Shown in pieces: positions 9,695 to 49,291 of a stretch of DNA of 64,000 nt. Position numbers and translations under genes: made by a program. The first letter of the stretch is position 1. Each line of letters starts with the position of its first letter. The notes beneath the pieces are model-generated. The model had not been told where the DNA came from and did no database searches. It saw nothing but the letters and a program-made list of their open reading frames with translations. The DNA is from an uncultured Fidelibacterota bacterium (lineage in GTDB: Bacteria; Fidelibacterota; Marinisomatia; Marinisomatales; UBA1611), in contig CAJWHW010000002.1 in the NCBI GenBank assembly GCA_913040915.1, positions 43,227-107,226 of the forward strand. The letters run 5' to 3'.

Positions 9695-10790
9695 GGATAT
9701 ATCCTTTTTGAACAAGTAGTTCTGCCATAAGAATGGCACCACCAGCGGCACCTCGAACTGTATTGTGCGACAATCCAATAAATCGAATATTAAAAAACAT
9801 ATCCTCTGTTATTCGCCCAACTGTTACAGTCATGCCATTTCCCAAATCTCGATCTAATTTAGGTTGGGGACGATCTATTTCATCCAAAACAATAATAGGA
9901 ATTTTTGGGGCTGATGGGAAATGCATAGCTTGTGGTTCTCCTATAAATGAAGATAAAATTAATTTGAACTCATCTATAGTAGGGGCAATATCAACAAATC
10001 CAATATGTACTACAGCAGTATGTCCATCTATTACTGGTACACGTGTACATACTGCATTTATAGCTAATCCCTTGAATTGCTCAATACCGCTTTCCGTTAC
10101 TTCACCAAATATTTTTAATGGTTCTTTTTCTGTCTTTTCTTCTTCTCCACCAATATAGGGTACAACATTATCTTTTAAATCTGGATTGGTTAATGCTTTA
10201 TAGCCAGCACCTGACAATGCTTGAAGGGTGGTCACTTGTACGCGATCCACCGGAAACCCTGCTTGTTTTAATGCTTCTAAAACAATAATATATGATTGAA
10301 TTGAACAATTAGGTTTAACTGCTACAAAACCAGAGTTTGGTAAATTTCGAATCATCTGTTGGATAGGAATCACCTCTGCATGATGAGGATTTATTTCAGG
10401 AATGATCATAGGTACATCACGGGTTTGACGATTAGCAGAACTAGTGGAAATAACAGCGTATCCTTTTTTTGCATACCCAAATTCAAAATCACGTGTATCC
10501 TGTTTTTTTTGTAAGTCTAACGCAGAAAATACACAGACTACATCCTCAGGTATTGATTCAAAATCATTCACATCCCGAACAATCAAGTTAGCAATTGAAT
10601 CAGGAATCTGTGTATCTATAGCCCATTTCTCACTAGTTGCTTCCCTGTAAGTTTTTCCGGAAGAATGCTTGGATGCAGCAACGTCTATAACGTCAAACCA
10701 TGGGTGGTTTTCCAATAATTTTAAGAAGTTTTGACCGACCATTCCAGTAGCACCTAAAACACTTACTTTAATATTTTTTTTTAGTAACAT
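9684..10790 (-). CDS. asd: Aspartate-semialdehyde dehydrogenase (resembles the archaeal/eukaryotic-type subfamily)
   Basis: LGATGMVGQ, PNCS (catalytic Cys), QALSGAG, CTRVPVIDGH, SHNTVRGAAG. Confidence 0.94.
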   Translation of the reverse strand: MLLKKNIKVSVLGATGMVGQNFLKLLENHPWFDVIDVAASKHSSGKTYREATSEKWAIDTQIPDSIANLIVRDVNDFESIPEDVVCVFSALDLQKKQDTRDFEFGYAKKGYAVISTSSANRQTRDVPMIIPEINPHHAEVIPIQQMIRNLPNSGFVAVKPNCSIQSYIIVLEALKQAGFPVDRVQVTTLQALSGAGYKALTNPDLKDNVVPYIGGEEEKTEKEPLKIFGEVTESGIEQFKGLAINAVCTRVPVIDGHTAVVHIGFVDIAPTIDEFKLILSSFIGEPQAMHFPSAPKIPIIVLDEIDRPQPKLDRDLGNGMTVTVGRITEDMFFNIRFIGLSHNTVRGAAGGAILMAELLVQKGYIHVQ

Positions 10791-13165
10791 TTTAAAATAT
10801 CTCCTAATACACCAGCAGCAGTGACTTCAGCTCCGGCACCATGTCCTTTTATAACCATGGGGGTATCTTTATATCTTTTAGTCGTAAACATAATAAAGTT
10901 TTCACGTCCATTTTGATGATAAAAAGGGTTTTTAATTCCCACTGCTTTCAATTTCACTGTTACATTTTGCCCATCCCAGGTGGCAATATATCGTAACGCC
11001 TTATCCTCTCTAGAAGCTGAAATATACATGTTTAAAAATTGGTCATCATATTTGGATAATTGCTCTAAAAACTCATCAATGGAAAATGCCGGATCCATAT
11101 TTTCTGGAATTAAGCTTTGAATAGATACATCATCAAACTCTAATTGTGCACCAGTCTCTCGGGCCAAAATGAGAATTTTTCTTCCCACATCCACACCATT
11201 CAAGTCATCTCTTGGGTCTGGTTCTGTGTACCCGTTTTCCTGTGCATATTTTACCAACTTACTAAATGCAATTGAACCATCAAATCGACTGAATAAATAG
11301 CTTAGCGTCCCAGACATAATTCCTTCAATTTTTTCAACTGTATCACCTGTTGCCAATAAAGTTTGTAATGTTTCAACAATAGGGAGACCTGCGCCAACAT
11401 TTGTTTCATATTTAAATTGAGAACCGGCAGCATTTGAATTTTCACGAATTAAATCATAATAATTCTGATTCATGGAATTGGCCAGTTTGCTAGCAGATAC
11501 AACAGAAATTCCTTTTTTTAAAATGTTTGCTATTTTTTTTGCGATTATAGGTGATGATGTTACATCCACAAATACGGGGTTAAGAGACTGAGCTGCATAA
11601 GAAATAAATGATTCTAAATCGACTGTATCACCACTTGCTAATTCTTCTACATAATTTTGGGAATCTAATCCATTTGGATTAATAATCATTTTTTGACTAT
11701 TTATTATACCGCATATATTTATGGAATTATTATCCTGAATTAACTTTATTAAATCTGAGCCAACCAACCCAACCCCAGCAATAAATACATTTATAATAGC
11801 ATTGTTTGAAAAAATATATTGATGCAAAGATCGAATGGCTGATTTGACTTCATCATTTTTAATAATAAAGGATATATTTCTTTCCGAAGATCCTTGAGCA
11901 ATAGCAACCACATTCACATTTTTTTCTCCAAGAACGGAAAATAGTTTCCCGGAAATTCCAGGTGTATGGCGCATCCCCTCGCCTACAACAGCAATGAGAG
12001 AAAGATCATTTTCAATATTAATAGTATCTATAAAATGGTTTTTCAGTTCAAACAAAAATTCTTTCTTCAAAAGTGATTCAGCTAGATCAACTTCTTTAGG
12101 TTGGATAGCAAAACAAATGGAATGCTCGCTAAACACTTGAGATACAAGAATAATATTTATTTTCTTTTTGGCTAGTGCATCAAATACACGTCCAATAACT
12201 CCAAAACGTCCCACCATACCGGCTCCTTGGAATCGGATTAAGGAAACATTATACAAAGATGAGATACCCACGGCAAAATGGTCATCCCTTGCACGGTCCT
12301 GTGTAATAGCCGTTCCTGGATTATCCGGTTCAAATGTATTTTTAATACGGATCGGAATAGATTTATATAAAGCAGGAATCATAGTGGGTGGGAAAATAAC
12401 TTTTGCCCCGGCATGAGCCAATTCCATGGCTTCTTCATAAGTAATATGAGAAATGGTTTTTGCATCAAAAACCACATTGGGATCGGCAGACAAAATACCG
12501 TTTACATCAGTCCAGATTTCTATTTCATTTACATCTAAAGCAGCGCCAAAAATGGATGCGGTATAGTCTGAACCGCTCCTTCCAAAAGTTGTTGTTTCTC
12601 CTAATTCAGTGGCACCAATGAATCCAGTAATTATCCTTGTTTTTGATTCATCTTTCCATTCATTACGAATATTATTGTAAGATTTTTGATAATGAACAAA
12701 TGCATTTCCGAAATGATCATCTGTTAAAATAACCTTTCGCGCATCCAAATATGTTGCATTTATTCCTTTTTCGATACATACTTCCGTAATAATTATTGCA
12801 GATAATTGCTCACCAATACTTAGTGCTGCATCTTTTAATTGCAGTGTACATTTTTTCTTTTTGGCAATTGTACTTAATATAAGACATAATTCATTTTCTA
12901 TTTCTTGGATAGTATTAAACAATAGTTCTTTTTCAAGATGAAGATCATGAATAGTTTTCCGATGCCTATCAAAAAACAATTGTAAATCATTATTATAATC
13001 AGCGTCCCGTTCTGCACATGAGATTAATTGAATGAGTTGATCCGTAATGCCACCAAACGCAGATACAACTACACCACATGGATGTTCAGATGAAATAAGC
13101 TGCACCACTTGCTCAATTCGTTGGGACGTTTTTACGGATGATCCGCCAAATTTGAGAATTTTCAT
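10781..13165 (-). CDS. thrA: Bifunctional aspartokinase / homoserine dehydrogenase
   Basis: KFGGSSV, GRSGSDYTA, two ACT domains, GVGLVG Rossmann motif, YETNVGAGLP, GYTEPDPRDDL. Confidence 0.95.
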   Translation of the reverse strand: MKILKFGGSSVKTSQRIEQVVQLISSEHPCGVVVSAFGGITDQLIQLISCAERDADYNNDLQLFFDRHRKTIHDLHLEKELLFNTIQEIENELCLILSTIAKKKKCTLQLKDAALSIGEQLSAIIITEVCIEKGINATYLDARKVILTDDHFGNAFVHYQKSYNNIRNEWKDESKTRIITGFIGATELGETTTFGRSGSDYTASIFGAALDVNEIEIWTDVNGILSADPNVVFDAKTISHITYEEAMELAHAGAKVIFPPTMIPALYKSIPIRIKNTFEPDNPGTAITQDRARDDHFAVGISSLYNVSLIRFQGAGMVGRFGVIGRVFDALAKKKINIILVSQVFSEHSICFAIQPKEVDLAESLLKKEFLFELKNHFIDTINIENDLSLIAVVGEGMRHTPGISGKLFSVLGEKNVNVVAIAQGSSERNISFIIKNDEVKSAIRSLHQYIFSNNAIINVFIAGVGLVGSDLIKLIQDNNSINICGIINSQKMIINPNGLDSQNYVEELASGDTVDLESFISYAAQSLNPVFVDVTSSPIIAKKIANILKKGISVVSASKLANSMNQNYYDLIRENSNAAGSQFKYETNVGAGLPIVETLQTLLATGDTVEKIEGIMSGTLSYLFSRFDGSIAFSKLVKYAQENGYTEPDPRDDLNGVDVGRKILILARETGAQLEFDDVSIQSLIPENMDPAFSIDEFLEQLSKYDDQFLNMYISASREDKALRYIATWDGQNVTVKLKAVGIKNPFYHQNGRENFIMFTTKRYKDTPMVIKGHGAGAEVTAAGVLGDILKCY

Positions 13166-13239
13166 TTTAATACTAATTAAATAGGTTTATCGTTAGTCGA
13201 AATATTACGGTTAATAAAAGTTTTACATGCTAAAAAGTG

Positions 13240-13419
13240 CTAATTGGAAATCAAAATATTACCAAATTCCTTTAATGAGAATAGGTTCACAGCATGATCC
13301 GCATTGTTGAATATATATGATGTTGAAGAAAAAATTCGGACTGCTCTAGCGTTTGTGCCTGCCATCGGTTCCTGCCTGGTATGGAACTGTAATTTATCAA
13401 AATGATTATTATTGCACAT
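13240..13419 (-). pseudogene. metY: Truncated O-acetylhomoserine sulfhydrylase (MetY) N-terminal relic, 59 aa
   Basis: Hand translation MCNNNHFDKLQFHTRQEPMAGTNARAVRIFSSTSYIFNNADHAVNLFSLKEFGNILISN* parallels the MetY N-terminus (FETLQLHAGQEP..T..RAVPIYQTTSYVF..ADHAA.LF.LKEFGNIY). AAGGA RBS upstream; lies directly behind a SAM-I riboswitch. Confidence 0.85.
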
Positions 13420-13560
13420 AGATATTTTTCCTTATTTTGTGTTATTTATTGGTTTGTTACTAATATTTATGAATTAGTTATTCATAATAAATACAAAACG
13501 TAATTGATAGCTTGTTGGGATAATATGTTAGAGGGCAAGAGACATTACAGCAGTATCTGT

Positions 13561-13670
13561 CTTATCAGTCTTCTAAAAAACTCGAAGCAGGAATTAGCAC
13601 CTTGAACCGCATTGTACGGAGATGGTTGCTAAGGTATCTTAGGGCCTGATCCCTCCACCTTTCTGGATAA
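13561..13670 (-). promoter_or_regulatory. SAM-I (S-box) riboswitch
   Basis: Minus strand reads TTATCCAGAAAGGTGGAGGGATCAGGCCCTAAGATACCTTAGCAACC...GGTGCTAATTCC...GATAAG. This contains P1 (TTATC/GATAA), GAGGGA..GGCCC, GCAACC and GGTGCTAATTCC. Confidence 0.93.
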
Positions 13671-13866
13671 AATCCGGTACTGATCTGTCAAAAAGCATAA
13701 AAAACTTCTTTTAAATGTTAAATATGAAAATAAAATAATGCAAGATAACATTAATATATTTAACTATACTCCATCATTTTCTATAATTTTTTTATAAATA
13801 AAAGGAATATGATTTATATTTGAATGTTGCCCTTTATAAGAATTTGTTATAAACTTTTAGCCAATT

Positions 13867-13950
13867 ATGAACATACGACGACGCCATAACCATCATCTTA
13901 ACACTTTGATTAATAACAATAATAATATGAGTGGGGGCGAAGCTTTGTAA
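13867..13950 (+). CDS. Putative asnB leader peptide (27 aa, MNIRRRHNHHLNTLINNNNNMSGGEAL)
   Basis: Hand-translated ORF with five consecutive Asn codons (AAT AAC AAT AAT AAT, 13912-13926) and 8 Asn in total, upstream of a terminator and asnB. Confidence 0.8.
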   Translation: MNIRRRHNHHLNTLINNNNNMSGGEAL

Positions 13951-13970
13951 CCATAAGGTTAAGCTTTAAT

Positions 13971-14010
13971 AAAAACCTCCAGGGATTTTAATTCATGGGG
14001 GTTTTTTTTT
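13971..14010 (+). terminator. Intrinsic terminator in the asnB leader (attenuator)
   Basis: AAAAACCTCCA...TGGGGGTTTTT stem (one G-U pair) running into a T9 tract, 23 nt before the asnB ATG. Confidence 0.8.
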
Positions 14011-14033
14011 ATATCAAATAAAAGGAAAAAATT

Positions 14034-15623
14034 ATGTGTGGCATATTTTTATATAAAGGTAGAAAACAAGATTGGAATTCATTGGAACCTGATATTAAAC
14101 GGATTGGTTATCGCGGCCCAGATAATACACACCATGAAATGATTGGCAATGATATATTATTAGCTTTCCATCGATTAGCTATCATGGGCACAAGTGAAAT
14201 GGGCGATCAACCGATGAAACATCCCAATGATGCTTCGCTCACTCTGATCTGTAATGGTGAAATTTATAATTATAAAAATTTAGCTAAAAAATATAGCTTT
14301 AATTTGAAGACAGGCTCTGATTGTGAAATTATTTTATTCATGTTTAAACAATTTGGTATTCAAAGAACTGTAAAGGAATTAGATGGCGTTTTCATGTTCG
14401 TATTATATGAAGCAAATACTGGTCTACTTTTTGCTGGCCGGGATCCCATGGGTGTTCGTCCGGGGTTTATCGGTCGAAATGGAGATGAGATTATGATTGC
14501 ATCAGAAGCAAAATCCATGGTGAATCATTCTTCAAGTATTATTCCATTTCCCCCAGGGCATTGGTGGTGTTCGAACCTTTCAGATATATTCAATCCTTAT
14601 TTTCTTTATAATAAAATCAAAATTCAAGAAAACACCGAAGAAGATATTTGTAATAAAATCCAGTTATTATTAACAGCTGCAGTTAAGAAACGGCTTATGA
14701 CAGAACGTGATATTGGGTGTTTATTATCTGGTGGTTTGGATTCGAGTTTAATTTGTGCTCTTGTGAATAAGTATTATGAAGGACCAAAACTAAATACATT
14801 TTCTATTGGACTTGTAGGGAGCATTGACCTTGAATATGCACAAGATGTGTCCTCTCATTTGAAATCAAAACACCACCAGATAGAAGTATCTCAAAATGAG
14901 TTTTTAGATGCAATTGAAACTGTGATTTATAATATTGAATCTTATGATACTACTACAGTCAGAGCCAGTGTAGGCAATTACCTCGTTTCAAAATATATTT
15001 CAGATAATTCTGATTGCAAGGTGATTTTTAACGGTGATGGCAGTGATGAGGTATGTTGTGGATATGTATATTTAAGGAATGCACCATCACCAGTTGATTT
15101 GCAAAAAGAAAATGAAAGGCTGGTTGAAGAGATTCATTATTTTGATGTGCTGCGCTCAGACCGCAGTATTAGTTCTAATGGTTTGGAAGCACGGACGCCT
15201 TTTTTGGATAAAACATTTGTGAAGTATTATTTATCAATTCCTGCGGAATTAAAGTTATTTGATGGGGCACAAAGATTAGAAAAATATTTATTAAGAAAAG
15301 CTTTTGATGATCAGGGACTTTTACCAGATAAAGTTTTATGGCGTCGGAAATGTGCTTTTTCAGATGGTGTAAGTTCGCAGAATAATTCCTGGCATCATAT
15401 TATCCAATCATTTGTAGACCAAAAAATTAGTGATGAAGAATTTCAGCGAGAAAGCACTAAGATCACACATTGCACTCCTCAATTAAAAGAGAGTTATTAC
15501 TATCGTAAAGTATTCAATAGCTTCTTTGAGAATCATGAGAATTTAATTCCTCATTTCTGGATGCCTAAGTGGTCCAATACGATAGACCCTTCAGCTAGAG
15601 AATTAAGTGGGTACAAAGAATAA
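14034..15623 (+). CDS. asnB: Asparagine synthetase (glutamine-hydrolysing)
   Basis: N-terminal MCGI (Ntn Cys2), RGPD, CNGEIYN, LSGGLDSS, GDGSDE, EARTPFLD. Confidence 0.96.
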   Translation: MCGIFLYKGRKQDWNSLEPDIKRIGYRGPDNTHHEMIGNDILLAFHRLAIMGTSEMGDQPMKHPNDASLTLICNGEIYNYKNLAKKYSFNLKTGSDCEIILFMFKQFGIQRTVKELDGVFMFVLYEANTGLLFAGRDPMGVRPGFIGRNGDEIMIASEAKSMVNHSSSIIPFPPGHWWCSNLSDIFNPYFLYNKIKIQENTEEDICNKIQLLLTAAVKKRLMTERDIGCLLSGGLDSSLICALVNKYYEGPKLNTFSIGLVGSIDLEYAQDVSSHLKSKHHQIEVSQNEFLDAIETVIYNIESYDTTTVRASVGNYLVSKYISDNSDCKVIFNGDGSDEVCCGYVYLRNAPSPVDLQKENERLVEEIHYFDVLRSDRSISSNGLEARTPFLDKTFVKYYLSIPAELKLFDGAQRLEKYLLRKAFDDQGLLPDKVLWRRKCAFSDGVSSQNNSWHHIIQSFVDQKISDEEFQRESTKITHCTPQLKESYYYRKVFNSFFENHENLIPHFWMPKWSNTIDPSARELSGYKE

Positions 15624-15799
15624 ATTATTTAATTATATTAATAATAAAATAAAATATATTTATTATTTGTTAAATTAAATTAAATGAATAATATTATAGA
15701 CAGGAAATAATTAAAATAATGTACGATACTGCAATAAATAAAATTAGCATTACGGGGATGAAGCCAATTGGGCTTTGTGACCGCGAAATTCTATGCCAA

Positions 15800-15886
15800 A
15801 TGGTTACTATATTGCAATCCATTATTCGGTACCTAAGTATATCAATTTTGGTACTTATTATTACCTTCGCCGTTTTGATCGCCTAG
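15800..15886 (+). CDS. Putative ilv-leu leader peptide (28 aa, MVTILQSIIRYLSISILVLIITFAVLIA)
   Basis: 16 of 28 residues are Ile/Leu/Val, including ILVLII. An in-frame ATG at 15719 would give 55 aa. The 3' end forms a long hairpin, and the ORF precedes ilvB. Confidence 0.65.
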   Translation: MVTILQSIIRYLSISILVLIITFAVLIA

Positions 15887-16119
15887 TTAAAACAAATACA
15901 TTCAGGTGATTCAAACGGTGAAAAAACTCTCCCCGATTAATTAGTCCATCCCTGAAGTATCTAATCTGGCAATTCGAACTGGTAAAATAGTTTGCGTAGT
16001 ATTTATTGTTGCGTTGAAAAAGGGACTTGATGAGTTTAGATCAAATAAAGTAGGATTTGAACATGCGTCCCACAGAAGCCCTTTGCGGGCTGCGAGCACA
16101 GTATTAAAGTAGTGGAGAC

Positions 16120-17847
16120 ATGAAAATGGAAAAACGAACTCTAACAGGAGCAGAAATTATTTGGGAATGTGTGACTAAAGAAGATGTGGGTGTGGTTTTT
16201 GGATATCCAGGAGGTGCAATCCTACCGGCATATGATGCTTTGAATAATTATCGGGATAAAATTCACCATGTGTTAGTGCGCCATGAACAGGGCGCGACAC
16301 ATATGGCTGATGGGTATGCACGTGCTAGTGGAAATGTGGGGGTAGCTATAGCGACATCAGGACCAGGAGCAACCAATATGGTCACAGGTTTGGCTACTGC
16401 AAAATTAGATTCTGTCCCCATTGTATGTATTACAGGTCAAGTTCCCCGGACTGCCATTGGATCAGATGCGTTTCAAGAAGTAGATATTTATGGTACAGTT
16501 TTTCCGGTGACAAAACATAGTTATTTAGTTATGGATATAAAAGACTTGGCCCCAACTATTAAGGAAGCATTTGCAGTGGCACGTTCCGGTAGGCCTGGTC
16601 CGGTTCTGATTGATATCCCTAAAGATATCCAAACTGAAACAATAGAATTTATTTATCCCAGTGAGCCTGTGAGATTGCCGGGAAATAATAAACTACAAAT
16701 CTCCACTGAAAAACAAATTAACGATGCAATCAACTTAATAAATAATGCAAAAAAACCAGTTATTCTTGCAGGACATGGTATTCTTCTATCTGGCGCTTCT
16801 CGAGAAGTGATAAAATTGGCAGAAACTGCATCAATTCCCATTGGCTGGACTTTATTGGGTTCAGGAAGTGTCCCTGCCAGCCACCCACTGAATATGGGTA
16901 TGATGGGCATGCATGGCGAATTTGCAGTGAATAATGCGATCCAAGATGCGGATCTATTAATTGCCTGTGGAATGCGTTTTGATGATCGTGTTACAGGTAA
17001 TGTAAAAACCTATTCACCCAATTCAAAAAAAATTCACATTGAAATTGATCCATCAGAAATCAATAAGAATGTCCCTGCCGATGTAGGTATTGCCGGAGAT
17101 CTACGAACTATTTTACTTCAACTTCTTCCGTTGGTAAAACAACGGAAAAATGAAGACTGGCTTAAAATAATTTCTTCTTGGCAATCTGAATCTATGGAAA
17201 GAGATATCATCAATGTCCAAACAGATACCCTCTACGGGGCCCAAGTGATTCGTGATATCTGGAAAGAGACCAGGGGTGATGCGCTTATTGTAACAGATGT
17301 AGGCCAGCACCAAATGCTTGAAGCACAGTATTATGCTCATGAAGAGCCCAACACATTATTAACCTCTGGTGGTTTGGGGACGATGGGTTTCAGTTTACCG
17401 GCGGCAATAGGTGCTAGTTTCACAAATAGAAATAAAGATATTTGGGTTATTGTCGGAGATGGTAGTATCCAGATGACAATTACTGAATTGGCTACTGCAG
17501 TACAAGAGAATGCTAATATAAAAATTGCCATAATTAATAATGGTTACTTGGGCATGGTTCGTCAGTGGCAGCAGCTATTTTATGATGCCCGTTATGCTGA
17601 AACACCCATTAGTAGCCCCGATTATTTAAAGATTTCAGAGGCGTATGGTCTGCCAGGCCATAGGGTACAAACCCGTGCTGAGATTCCTAATGTAATTAAT
17701 ATGGCAAAAAAAAATGAAGGCCCCGTCCTTATAGAGTTTGTAGTGGAGCAACATGATATGGTTTATCCTATGGTGCCAGCTGGCGCTGATTTGAATGCTA
17801 TGATCAACAGGCCGAAAAATAAGCAATTTCAAGAAATAGAAGAATAA
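16120..17847 (+). CDS. ilvB: Acetolactate synthase large subunit
   Basis: FGYPGGAILP, RHEQGA, TSGPGATN, RFDDRVTG, ThDP motif GDGS...NN. Confidence 0.96.
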   Translation: MKMEKRTLTGAEIIWECVTKEDVGVVFGYPGGAILPAYDALNNYRDKIHHVLVRHEQGATHMADGYARASGNVGVAIATSGPGATNMVTGLATAKLDSVPIVCITGQVPRTAIGSDAFQEVDIYGTVFPVTKHSYLVMDIKDLAPTIKEAFAVARSGRPGPVLIDIPKDIQTETIEFIYPSEPVRLPGNNKLQISTEKQINDAINLINNAKKPVILAGHGILLSGASREVIKLAETASIPIGWTLLGSGSVPASHPLNMGMMGMHGEFAVNNAIQDADLLIACGMRFDDRVTGNVKTYSPNSKKIHIEIDPSEINKNVPADVGIAGDLRTILLQLLPLVKQRKNEDWLKIISSWQSESMERDIINVQTDTLYGAQVIRDIWKETRGDALIVTDVGQHQMLEAQYYAHEEPNTLLTSGGLGTMGFSLPAAIGASFTNRNKDIWVIVGDGSIQMTITELATAVQENANIKIAIINNGYLGMVRQWQQLFYDARYAETPISSPDYLKISEAYGLPGHRVQTRAEIPNVINMAKKNEGPVLIEFVVEQHDMVYPMVPAGADLNAMINRPKNKQFQEIEE

Positions 17848-48883: not shown

Positions 48884-48900
48884 GTCACTTATTTTAAATT

Positions 48901-49280
48901 GAGTCGGTTGGATGGTTACTCCTGGCTTACATTAGTAATCTGGGAGAGGAAAGTCCGGGCACTGCAGGACAGGATGCTTCTTAATGAGAAGAGGTGTGCT
49001 GATGTACATTATGGAAAGTGCAACAGAAAGTAAACCGTCTGCCAACTGGCGGATAAGGGTGAAAAGGTGGTGTAAGAGACCACCAGATTTTGAGGAAACT
49101 CAGAATGCTTGTAAACCCCATCCAGTGCAAGATCATATAGGCTCTAAGATGTTGTTCGCATCGATTTAAGAGCGGGTAGATTGCTAGATCTTATTGGCGA
49201 CAATTAGACTAGATGAATGACCATCCAATCAGGTTTGATACGTCAACCTGATGGACAAAACTCGGCTTATAGACCGGCTC
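48901..49280 (+). ncRNA. rnpB: RNase P RNA (bacterial type A)
   Basis: GAGGAAAGTCCGGGC, GAAAGTGCAACAGAA, GGGTGAAAAGGTGGTGTAAGAGACCACCAG, ACAAAACTCGGCTTA; terminal P1 GAGTCGGT/ACCGGCTC. Confidence 0.96.
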
Positions 49281-49291
49281 AATTTTTTTAT

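Follow-up and report, generated by a model that had tools for sequence, protein, structure and literature searches.

The asparagine synthase gene asnB of an uncultured Marinimicrobia bacterium is preceded by a short open reading frame (ORF) containing a run of asparagine codons and by a hairpin ending in a run of U residues, which raises the question of whether its transcription is controlled by a ribosome translating that ORF. The window, i.e., the whole stretch of 64,000 nucleotides (nt) of DNA that was analysed, contains the following elements around the asnB start.

13827-13855, + strand: possible promoter (TTGCCC-17 nt-TAAACT), recognised by eye, ending 11 nt before the start of the leader ORF
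13867-13950, + strand: leader ORF (uORF) with ATG at 13867, 27 codons including eight Asn codons, and the stop codon TAA at 13948-13950
13882-13896, + strand: predicted region 1, whose segments CGCC and CCAUCAU are paired to region 2 in minimum-free-energy folds if the ribosome is absent
13900-13926, + strand: proposed sensor codons, a single Asn codon (13900-13902) and the tandem run of five (13912-13926)
13932-13937, + strand: region 2, the predicted antiterminator strand UGGGGG, with the same sequence as the terminator 3' arm
13939-13967, + strand: predicted inner hairpin (GAAGCU/AGCUUU and UAACC/GGUUA), which has the stop codon inside and would juxtapose regions 2 and 3
13971-14010, + strand: intrinsic terminator, with a hairpin at 13971-14006 and then nine U at 14002-14010
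13971-13986, + strand: terminator 5' arm (region 3), with the core CCUCCA at 13976-13981
13991-14006, + strand: terminator 3' arm (region 4), including UGGGGG at 13996-14001
14023-14026, + strand: Shine-Dalgarno (SD) sequence of asnB, AGGA, read from the sequence
14034-15623, + strand: asnB, encoding a glutamine-hydrolysing asparagine synthase of 529 aa, assigned by Pfam and NCBIfam

The product of the uORF is MNIRRRHNHHLNTLINNNNNMSGGEAL (translation of 13867-13950). Its five tandem Asn codons read AAT AAC AAT AAT AAT (13912-13926), and the other Asn codons are located at 13870, 13888, and 13900. The motif TGGGGG of region 2 occurs a second time at 13996-14001, and CCTCCA, with which either copy can pair, is located at 13976-13981. 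The inner hairpin consists of two nested helices (13939-13944/13962-13967 and 13948-13952/13957-13961). The first-pass annotation had described a 27-codon ORF with five Asn codons, a terminator at 13971-14010, and a gap of 23 nt between the T run and the asnB ATG (14034), and every coordinate was found to hold.

The free energy of the terminator hairpin of the window was -14.0 to -15.4 kcal/mol in the predicted folds. The RNA of 13860-14040 folded with -37.1 kcal/mol (z = -2.18), its strongest element being the terminator, and three of 200 shuffled sequences folded equally well. The leader terminator was not listed in a consensus terminator scan of 13100-16200 because that scan allows only loops of 3-8 nt and this stem carries an interior bulge as well as an inner stem. 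The neighbour upstream of the leader is the aspartokinase-homoserine dehydrogenase gene (10781-13165, - strand), which is divergent, and thus no + strand gene ends at the leader terminator. A SAM-I riboswitch (13559-13673, - strand, 73.8 bits) was observed upstream of this neighbouring gene, so that the 870-nt intergenic region would hold two RNA-based amino-acid sensors back to back, the riboswitch and the asnB leader.

The identity of the downstream gene was examined together with the ways in which its genome can make and charge asparagine. The asnB product matched Pfam Asn_synthase (7.1e-66) and GATase_7, and NCBIfam TIGR01536 with 354.8 bits (cut-off 267.1); the score for PRK09431 was 496.8 bits, slightly below its cut-off of 499. 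The genome (1.86 Mb, 71 contigs, 85% complete, 35.6% G+C) contains asnS, encoding asparaginyl-tRNA synthetase (AsnRS; 486 bits in the profile search), and therefore the direct route from Asn through AsnRS to the tRNA. Neither gatB nor AsnA was found in this 85% complete genome, and the same was the case for a second asparagine synthase besides asnB. As AsnRS is present and no GatB, AsnA, or second synthase was found, the charging of tRNA-Asn should track the free Asn made by AsnB and report its level.

The asnB gene is patchy in the family. It is carried by 15 of 41 related genomes, and it was not found in the only other genome of the same genus (92% complete); the many relatives without asnB may depend on external asparagine. 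Among the 15 carriers, 14 upstream regions were readable, and the arrangement of Asn-run uORF and terminator was present in eight and absent from six of them.

The arrangement was then followed in Marinimicrobia genomes and marine metagenomes, which gave a set of 61 distinct leaders (28 genome-derived and 33 further metagenome leaders). From the public genome collection, 35 asnB loci of the Marinimicrobia type were examined. The covariance model R1 matched 21 of them, one more was recognisable by eye (L035), another was truncated by the end of its contig, and the element was absent from the remaining 12. When R1 was run on 82 sources, 24 strong + strand matches (45.5-105 bits) were obtained, all directly before asnB, and the other matches scored at most 39.9 bits and were mostly the mirror image of the terminator. 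On marine metagenome contigs, the leader was present at 45 of 68 asnB loci with a readable upstream region and absent from the other 23. Of 151 genomes sampled evenly across the phylum, 10 contained a single R1 match each. All 10 belonged to the order of the window, in four of its families, and they coincided exactly with the set of genomes having a full-length orthologous asnB; in an eleventh genome, asnB was represented only by a fragment, located where a contig ends. No Asn-run uORF followed by a terminator was observed before 37 control asnB loci from Bacteroidota, Bacteriovoracaceae, and other groups (38-45% identity; upstream G+C of 0.20-0.59) or before 18 asnB-like loci (36-41% identity) of other orders of the phylum.

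Within its own genome, the leader has one true copy according to R1. Two weak extra R1 matches in this genome were rejected as ordinary gene-end terminators. The genome contains 33 distinct short ATG-started ORFs with at least four Asn in six codons, and a hairpin followed by T6 within 120 nt was found after only one of the 33, the asnB leader. A genome scan for other leader-peptide attenuators (at least four of one residue in six codons plus a terminator) yielded nothing convincing beyond the asnB leader.

Two loci deviated in form. The leader of L035 (1083-1153 and upstream), which was missed by R1, is G+C-rich (MLIAHAQIFMNVNNNNANNAHDWAVGRSVRFFRR), with GGGCG/CGCCC replacing GGGGG/CCCCC; it precedes an asnB of 61% identity on a contig labelled Anaerolineales. 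In L039 (1008-1200), approximately 190 nt are inserted between the terminator and asnB, and the insert, having terminal inverted repeats of approximately 19 nt and an internal palindrome, looks like a miniature mobile element.

An ATG-started ORF with an in-frame Asn run was observed in all 28 genome leaders and in 31 of the 33 further metagenome leaders (59 of 61 in total), confirming that the run proposed from the single sequence is kept in frame in orthologous leaders. The ORFs of these 59 leaders were 19-48 codons long. In the 28 genome leaders, the ORF had 22-36 codons with 6-12 Asn, and its stop codon was located 48-61 nt before the T run; the 31 further metagenome ORFs had 4-16 Asn. Asn accounted for 28% of the 804 residues encoded by the 28 leaders, with 160 AAT and 65 AAC codons. 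The other two frames through the run were rarely open from an ATG (two of the 28 leaders for the Ile frame, none for the third frame). The length of the Asn run changed by whole codons, and the peptide diverged freely elsewhere. The leader ORF is thus enriched in the codons of the amino acid made by the biosynthetic gene that follows it, which is one of the features that define an attenuator. In the two exceptional metagenome leaders (L157 and L174), the Asn frame was open and only TTG, no ATG, was found upstream of the run; L174 had also lost the G-run of the terminator 3' arm. They may be decaying copies or assembly errors.

A second defining feature is also present, in that an intrinsic terminator separates the leader ORF from the biosynthetic gene. 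The terminators of the 28 genome leaders had free energies of -13.0 to -25.2 kcal/mol, with 6-9 U after the hairpin in nearly all of them, and the distance from the T run to the asnB start was 11-32 nt. This distance appears to leave no room for a separate promoter, and asnB would thus have to be transcribed through the terminator. In the alignment A4 (24 sequences), the terminator and the upstream hairpin were 87.8% paired, as compared with 38-53% when the partners were slid. Eight pairs were changed on both sides, including four of the 10 pairs of the terminator, so that the stem covariation suggested as a check by the first-pass annotation was found for the terminator. The covariation score of A4 was 0.265, as compared with 0.150 in shuffled alignments, and it was reached by none of 500 shuffles.

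The upstream hairpin (helix 1) is of the ACGCCAA/UUGGCGU type, includes Asn codons, and covaries in most lineages, with four of its seven pairs changed on both sides in A4. In the clade of the window itself, the upstream hairpin of regions 1 and 2 is a minimum-free-energy prediction only. The G-run was paired with the upstream region 1 in 20 of 27 leaders, which is at chance level (18.2 +/- 2.6 in shuffled sequences).

For the antiterminator, i.e., the helix of regions 2 and 3, evidence was obtained from the conservation of its strands. In 58 of 61 distinct leaders, a G-run of at least four preceded the stop codon by 8-11 nt, and in 56 of 61, the terminator 5' arm contained a C-run of at least four. 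The G-run occurred in two codon phases (34 and 26), in which its codons are read as Gly-Gly or as Val/Met/Leu/Ala-Gly, and this points to a constraint on the RNA rather than on the peptide. Region 3 begins 22-28 nt past the stop codon in the 28 genome leaders. The upstream strand mirrors the terminator 3' arm even in lineage variants, such as GCGGGGG/CCCUCGC in L106 and GGGGC/GCCCC in L053. By eye, an inner hairpin containing the stop codon was recognised between the G-run and the C-run in every lineage, with a different sequence in each (for example, GUGUAA/UUACAC, CUGUGU/ACACAG, CCCGU/ACGGG, and UCUCA/UGAGA).

In covariation and shuffle tests, the same helix did not stand out. On A4, the helix of regions 2 and 3 had no pairs changed on both sides. 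In a clade of 17 sequences, it was 78.4% paired, as compared with 39-55% when slid, and two pairs were changed on both sides, a number reached by 216 of 500 shuffles. RNAalifold did not recover the antiterminator on the unbiased MAFFT alignment A5, giving a six-pair helix at -0.7 kcal/mol that is meaningless; when the stop codon was aligned in A5, the G-run was offset by 2 nt between two clades. When the upstream segment was shuffled, a median of 38% of the shuffles paired with the 5' arm as much or more, and the pairing of the arm in any one sequence is thus unremarkable in itself. We infer the antiterminator from its conservation, without significant covariation. The competition of the upstream TGGGGG for CCTCCA, stabilised by the nested hairpin, had been put forward in the first-pass annotation; it was reproduced in the predicted folds, but covariation and shuffling did not distinguish it.

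The two states of the switch were modelled with a ribosome that masks the RNA up to 13 nt past the first base of the A-site codon, and only the RNA transcribed ahead of region 4 was folded. In the window, with the A site at 13900, 13912, 13915, or 13918, UGGGGG paired with CCUCCA and closed the 13939-13967 hairpin (-15.7 kcal/mol). With the A site at 13921, 13924, or the stop codon, the G-run was masked, regions 2 and 3 did not pair, and the terminator formed. The two RNA states predicted at the outset were therefore reproduced, with stalling leading to pairing of regions 2 and 3 and the stop codon leading to the terminator, but the claim that a ribosome stalled on the Asn codons leaves TGGGGG free applies to the first four of these six positions and fails at 13921 and 13924. 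Under the assumed footprint, the ribosome model has the stalled ribosome freeing region 2 and the terminating ribosome masking it.

The same procedure was applied to the 28 genome leaders. Upstream pairing of 5 nt or more of the terminator 5' arm was predicted in all 28 leaders when the first Asn codon of the run occupied the A site, and in only nine when the last one did. A ribosome placed at the stop codon left the 5' arm free of such upstream pairs in 21 of the 28. The 5' arm was still paired upstream in 19 of 28 folds without a ribosome, and thus termination in the absence of translation is not uniformly predicted. For the full-length RNA at equilibrium, the terminator won even with a stalled ribosome; therefore, the switch must be kinetic. 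In the trp attenuator, the terminator is likewise favoured at equilibrium and the switch is kinetic.

In the proposed mechanism, RNA polymerase would start shortly upstream and a ribosome would translate the 27-codon leader. When charged Asn-tRNA is ample, the ribosome would reach the stop codon (13948-13950), cover UGGGGG at 13932-13937, and open the inner hairpin. CCUCCA (13976-13981) would then be available to the downstream UGGGGG (13996-14001) as a pairing partner, and the formation of the hairpin followed by U9 would end transcription 23 nt before asnB. When Asn-tRNA is scarce, the ribosome would stall with its A site at the Asn codon 13900, 13912, 13915, or 13918; the upstream UGGGGG, outside the footprint, would pair with CCUCCA once this is made and close the 13939-13967 hairpin. 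The terminator would thereby be blocked, and the polymerase would read into asnB. Taken together, 13867-14010 is most likely a ribosome-mediated transcription attenuator that ties asnB to the charging of tRNA-Asn, with a new specificity.

The terminator could also be that of a real attenuator switched by a trans-acting factor (an RNA-binding protein, a small RNA, or a metabolite), with the Asn ORF having no role in sensing. Such a factor would be compatible with an antiterminator lacking significant covariation, with ribosome-free folds that do not uniformly predict termination, and with the absence of an SD sequence from the uORF, as an SD-like motif was found before the uORF in one of 28 leaders and before asnB in 25 of 27. 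Initiation on such an ORF may be of another kind: the possible promoter at 13827-13855 lies close to the ATG, and a TTGGTA-17-TAAGAT box, seen by eye in close relatives, ends 5 nt before it. These -10-like boxes, located 5-12 nt before the uORF ATG, suggest that the mRNA is leaderless or near-leaderless, with a 5' UTR that is very short or absent. The possible promoter matches eight of 12 consensus positions, and for this reason it was not listed by the promoter scan, which listed the nearby sites 13760-13787 and 13791-13820.

A trans-acting factor alone would not account for an Asn run that, in 59 of 61 distinct leaders, remained in frame with synonymous exchanges of AAT and AAC and whose length (4-16 Asn) varied in whole codons, nor for the occurrence of the element only before a gene that makes Asn. 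In addition, the leader did not match any Rfam family at the gathering threshold, riboswitches and T-box included. The leader families His_leader (RF00514) and Phe_leader (RF01859) scored 24.4 and 20.7 bits, below their thresholds of 49 and 55 bits, respectively, and no T-box match was obtained on the leader. Switching by a trans-acting factor is therefore regarded as unlikely.

According to another explanation, the uORF and terminator form a small gene of their own, the product of which is an Asn-rich micropeptide or a small RNA, and asnB is expressed by leak-through or from an overlapping promoter. A conserved ORF followed by a strong terminator would fit such a gene, and the promoter scan placed a promoter-like site matching 10 of 12 positions within the leader, at 13898-13926. 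However, the free divergence of the peptide outside the Asn run is not expected of a functional micropeptide, and the conserved Gly residues would be a by-product of the G-run, which is kept in two codon phases. A transcript started from 13898 would still have to pass the terminator, and only 11-32 nt are available between the T run and asnB. A separate small gene is, on this evidence, very unlikely.

Control could instead be exerted on translation, with the ribosome on the uORF altering access to the asnB ribosome-binding site or the stability of the mRNA, and termination not being the regulated step. In favour of this, the uORF and asnB are close neighbours. RNA-library contigs of related strains were found, namely a 910-nt contig spanning 13898-14507 (leader, terminator, and the 5' end of asnB) and further contigs covering 13898-13974 and 13898-14027. 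The sequencing runs accounted for only small shares of the sampled words (0.04-0.05), and the four runs compared with the window yielded only contigs of related strains. RNA ends are not readable from these contigs and DNA carry-over is possible, so they have no bearing on termination. Translational control is opposed by the hairpin with 6-9 U that was present in nearly all leaders and covaried like an intrinsic terminator, and by the position of the asnB SD sequence, which is located 13 nt past the T run, in a part for which the fold shows only a weak A/U helix. We consider it to be highly improbable.

Chance AT-rich low-complexity sequence beside an ordinary terminator, which the first-pass annotation had named as the finding that would overturn its proposal, is suggested by a genome of 35.6% G+C, in which AAT repeats are common, but it is counted as already refuted, as the run is kept in frame in 59 of 61 leaders, a terminator follows only one of the 33 Asn-run short ORFs of the genome, the element is conserved over four families of the order, and none of the 55 more distant asnB upstream regions, many of them equally AT-rich, shows it.

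Ribosome-mediated attenuation, as proposed here for asnB, was compared with known systems. The classical attenuators are those of the trpL, hisL, pheL, leuL, thrL, and ilv leaders of enterobacterial operons. The asnB leader shares with them a short ORF rich in codons of the end product, a terminator that immediately precedes the biosynthetic gene, mimicry of the terminator 3' arm by a strand further upstream, and a position of the stop codon at which a terminating ribosome would cover this strand. It differs from them in sensing Asn, as proposed, in its host, which belongs to the uncultured phylum Marinimicrobia, and in the absence of an SD sequence from its uORF. Furthermore, its regions 2 and 3 would form a short G-run/C-run helix closing an inner hairpin instead of one long stem.

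Genes for asparagine synthesis and charging are also regulated by Asn T-box leaders and AsnC, according to the status of Asn or tRNA-Asn. The asnB leader shares with the Asn T-box the choice between a terminator and an antiterminator, but unlike the T-box and AsnC, it would sense through a translating ribosome and not through direct binding of a tRNA or a DNA-binding protein.

The closest parallel to the codon run comes from mycobacteria, for which leaderless polycysteine short ORFs were proposed to sense Cys and control downstream operon genes (bioRxiv 10.1101/834739). Both have a run of codons for one residue and lack an SD-bearing leader; the mycobacterial ORFs differ in amino acid and host (Cys and Actinobacteria), and the asnB leader has Asn codons together with a canonical intrinsic terminator. 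No Asn leader-peptide attenuator was found in Rfam 15 or by full-text searches of the literature, and surveys in subscription journals may hold such a prediction. Of two papers on attenuators and leader peptides, PMC2965389 had the word "asparagine" zero times and "asn" once, with no passage on an Asn leader among those retrieved, and PMC4833913 had no occurrences. Asn is thus probably an undescribed specificity of classical attenuation, with the sensor placed in an SD-less, possibly leaderless mini-gene of an uncultured ocean phylum. The mechanism itself is textbook, and what would be new is the sensed amino acid.

If the proposal is true, one more amino acid would be added to the short list of those sensed by leader-peptide attenuation, and Marinimicrobia (SAR406), which are represented by metagenomes only, would have a first proposed mechanism for the regulation of asparagine synthesis. 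The ratio of terminated to read-through leaders in metatranscriptomes would then report Asn limitation in situ in a culture-independent manner. The leader is also an argument that this AsnB paralogue has been correctly annotated as the true asparagine synthase, which is of use because AsnB-like enzymes also perform other amidations. As a compact unit of 144 nt, it should suit tests in a heterologous host.

Several minor observations were made elsewhere in the window. Upstream of ilvB, a short ORF (15800-15886, + strand, or starting from 15719) ends in an Ile/Leu/Val-rich tail (...SISILVLIITFAVLIA), and similar tails end short ORFs located before ilvD in the relatives L019 and L029. This ORF is a candidate branched-chain leader peptide; no canonical terminator was seen after it. 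The segment 15818-16080 is 73% identical to L019/L002. An open stretch of 29 codons at approximately 16023-16112 (+ strand), which stops before ilvB (16120), resembles the IlvD N-terminus of L019 and L029. No member of the ilvD family TIGR00110 was found in the 85% complete genome, and the stretch at approximately 16023-16112 may be the stub of a deleted ilvD. A bacterial RNase P RNA of class A was identified at 48900-49285 (+ strand) with 272 bits.
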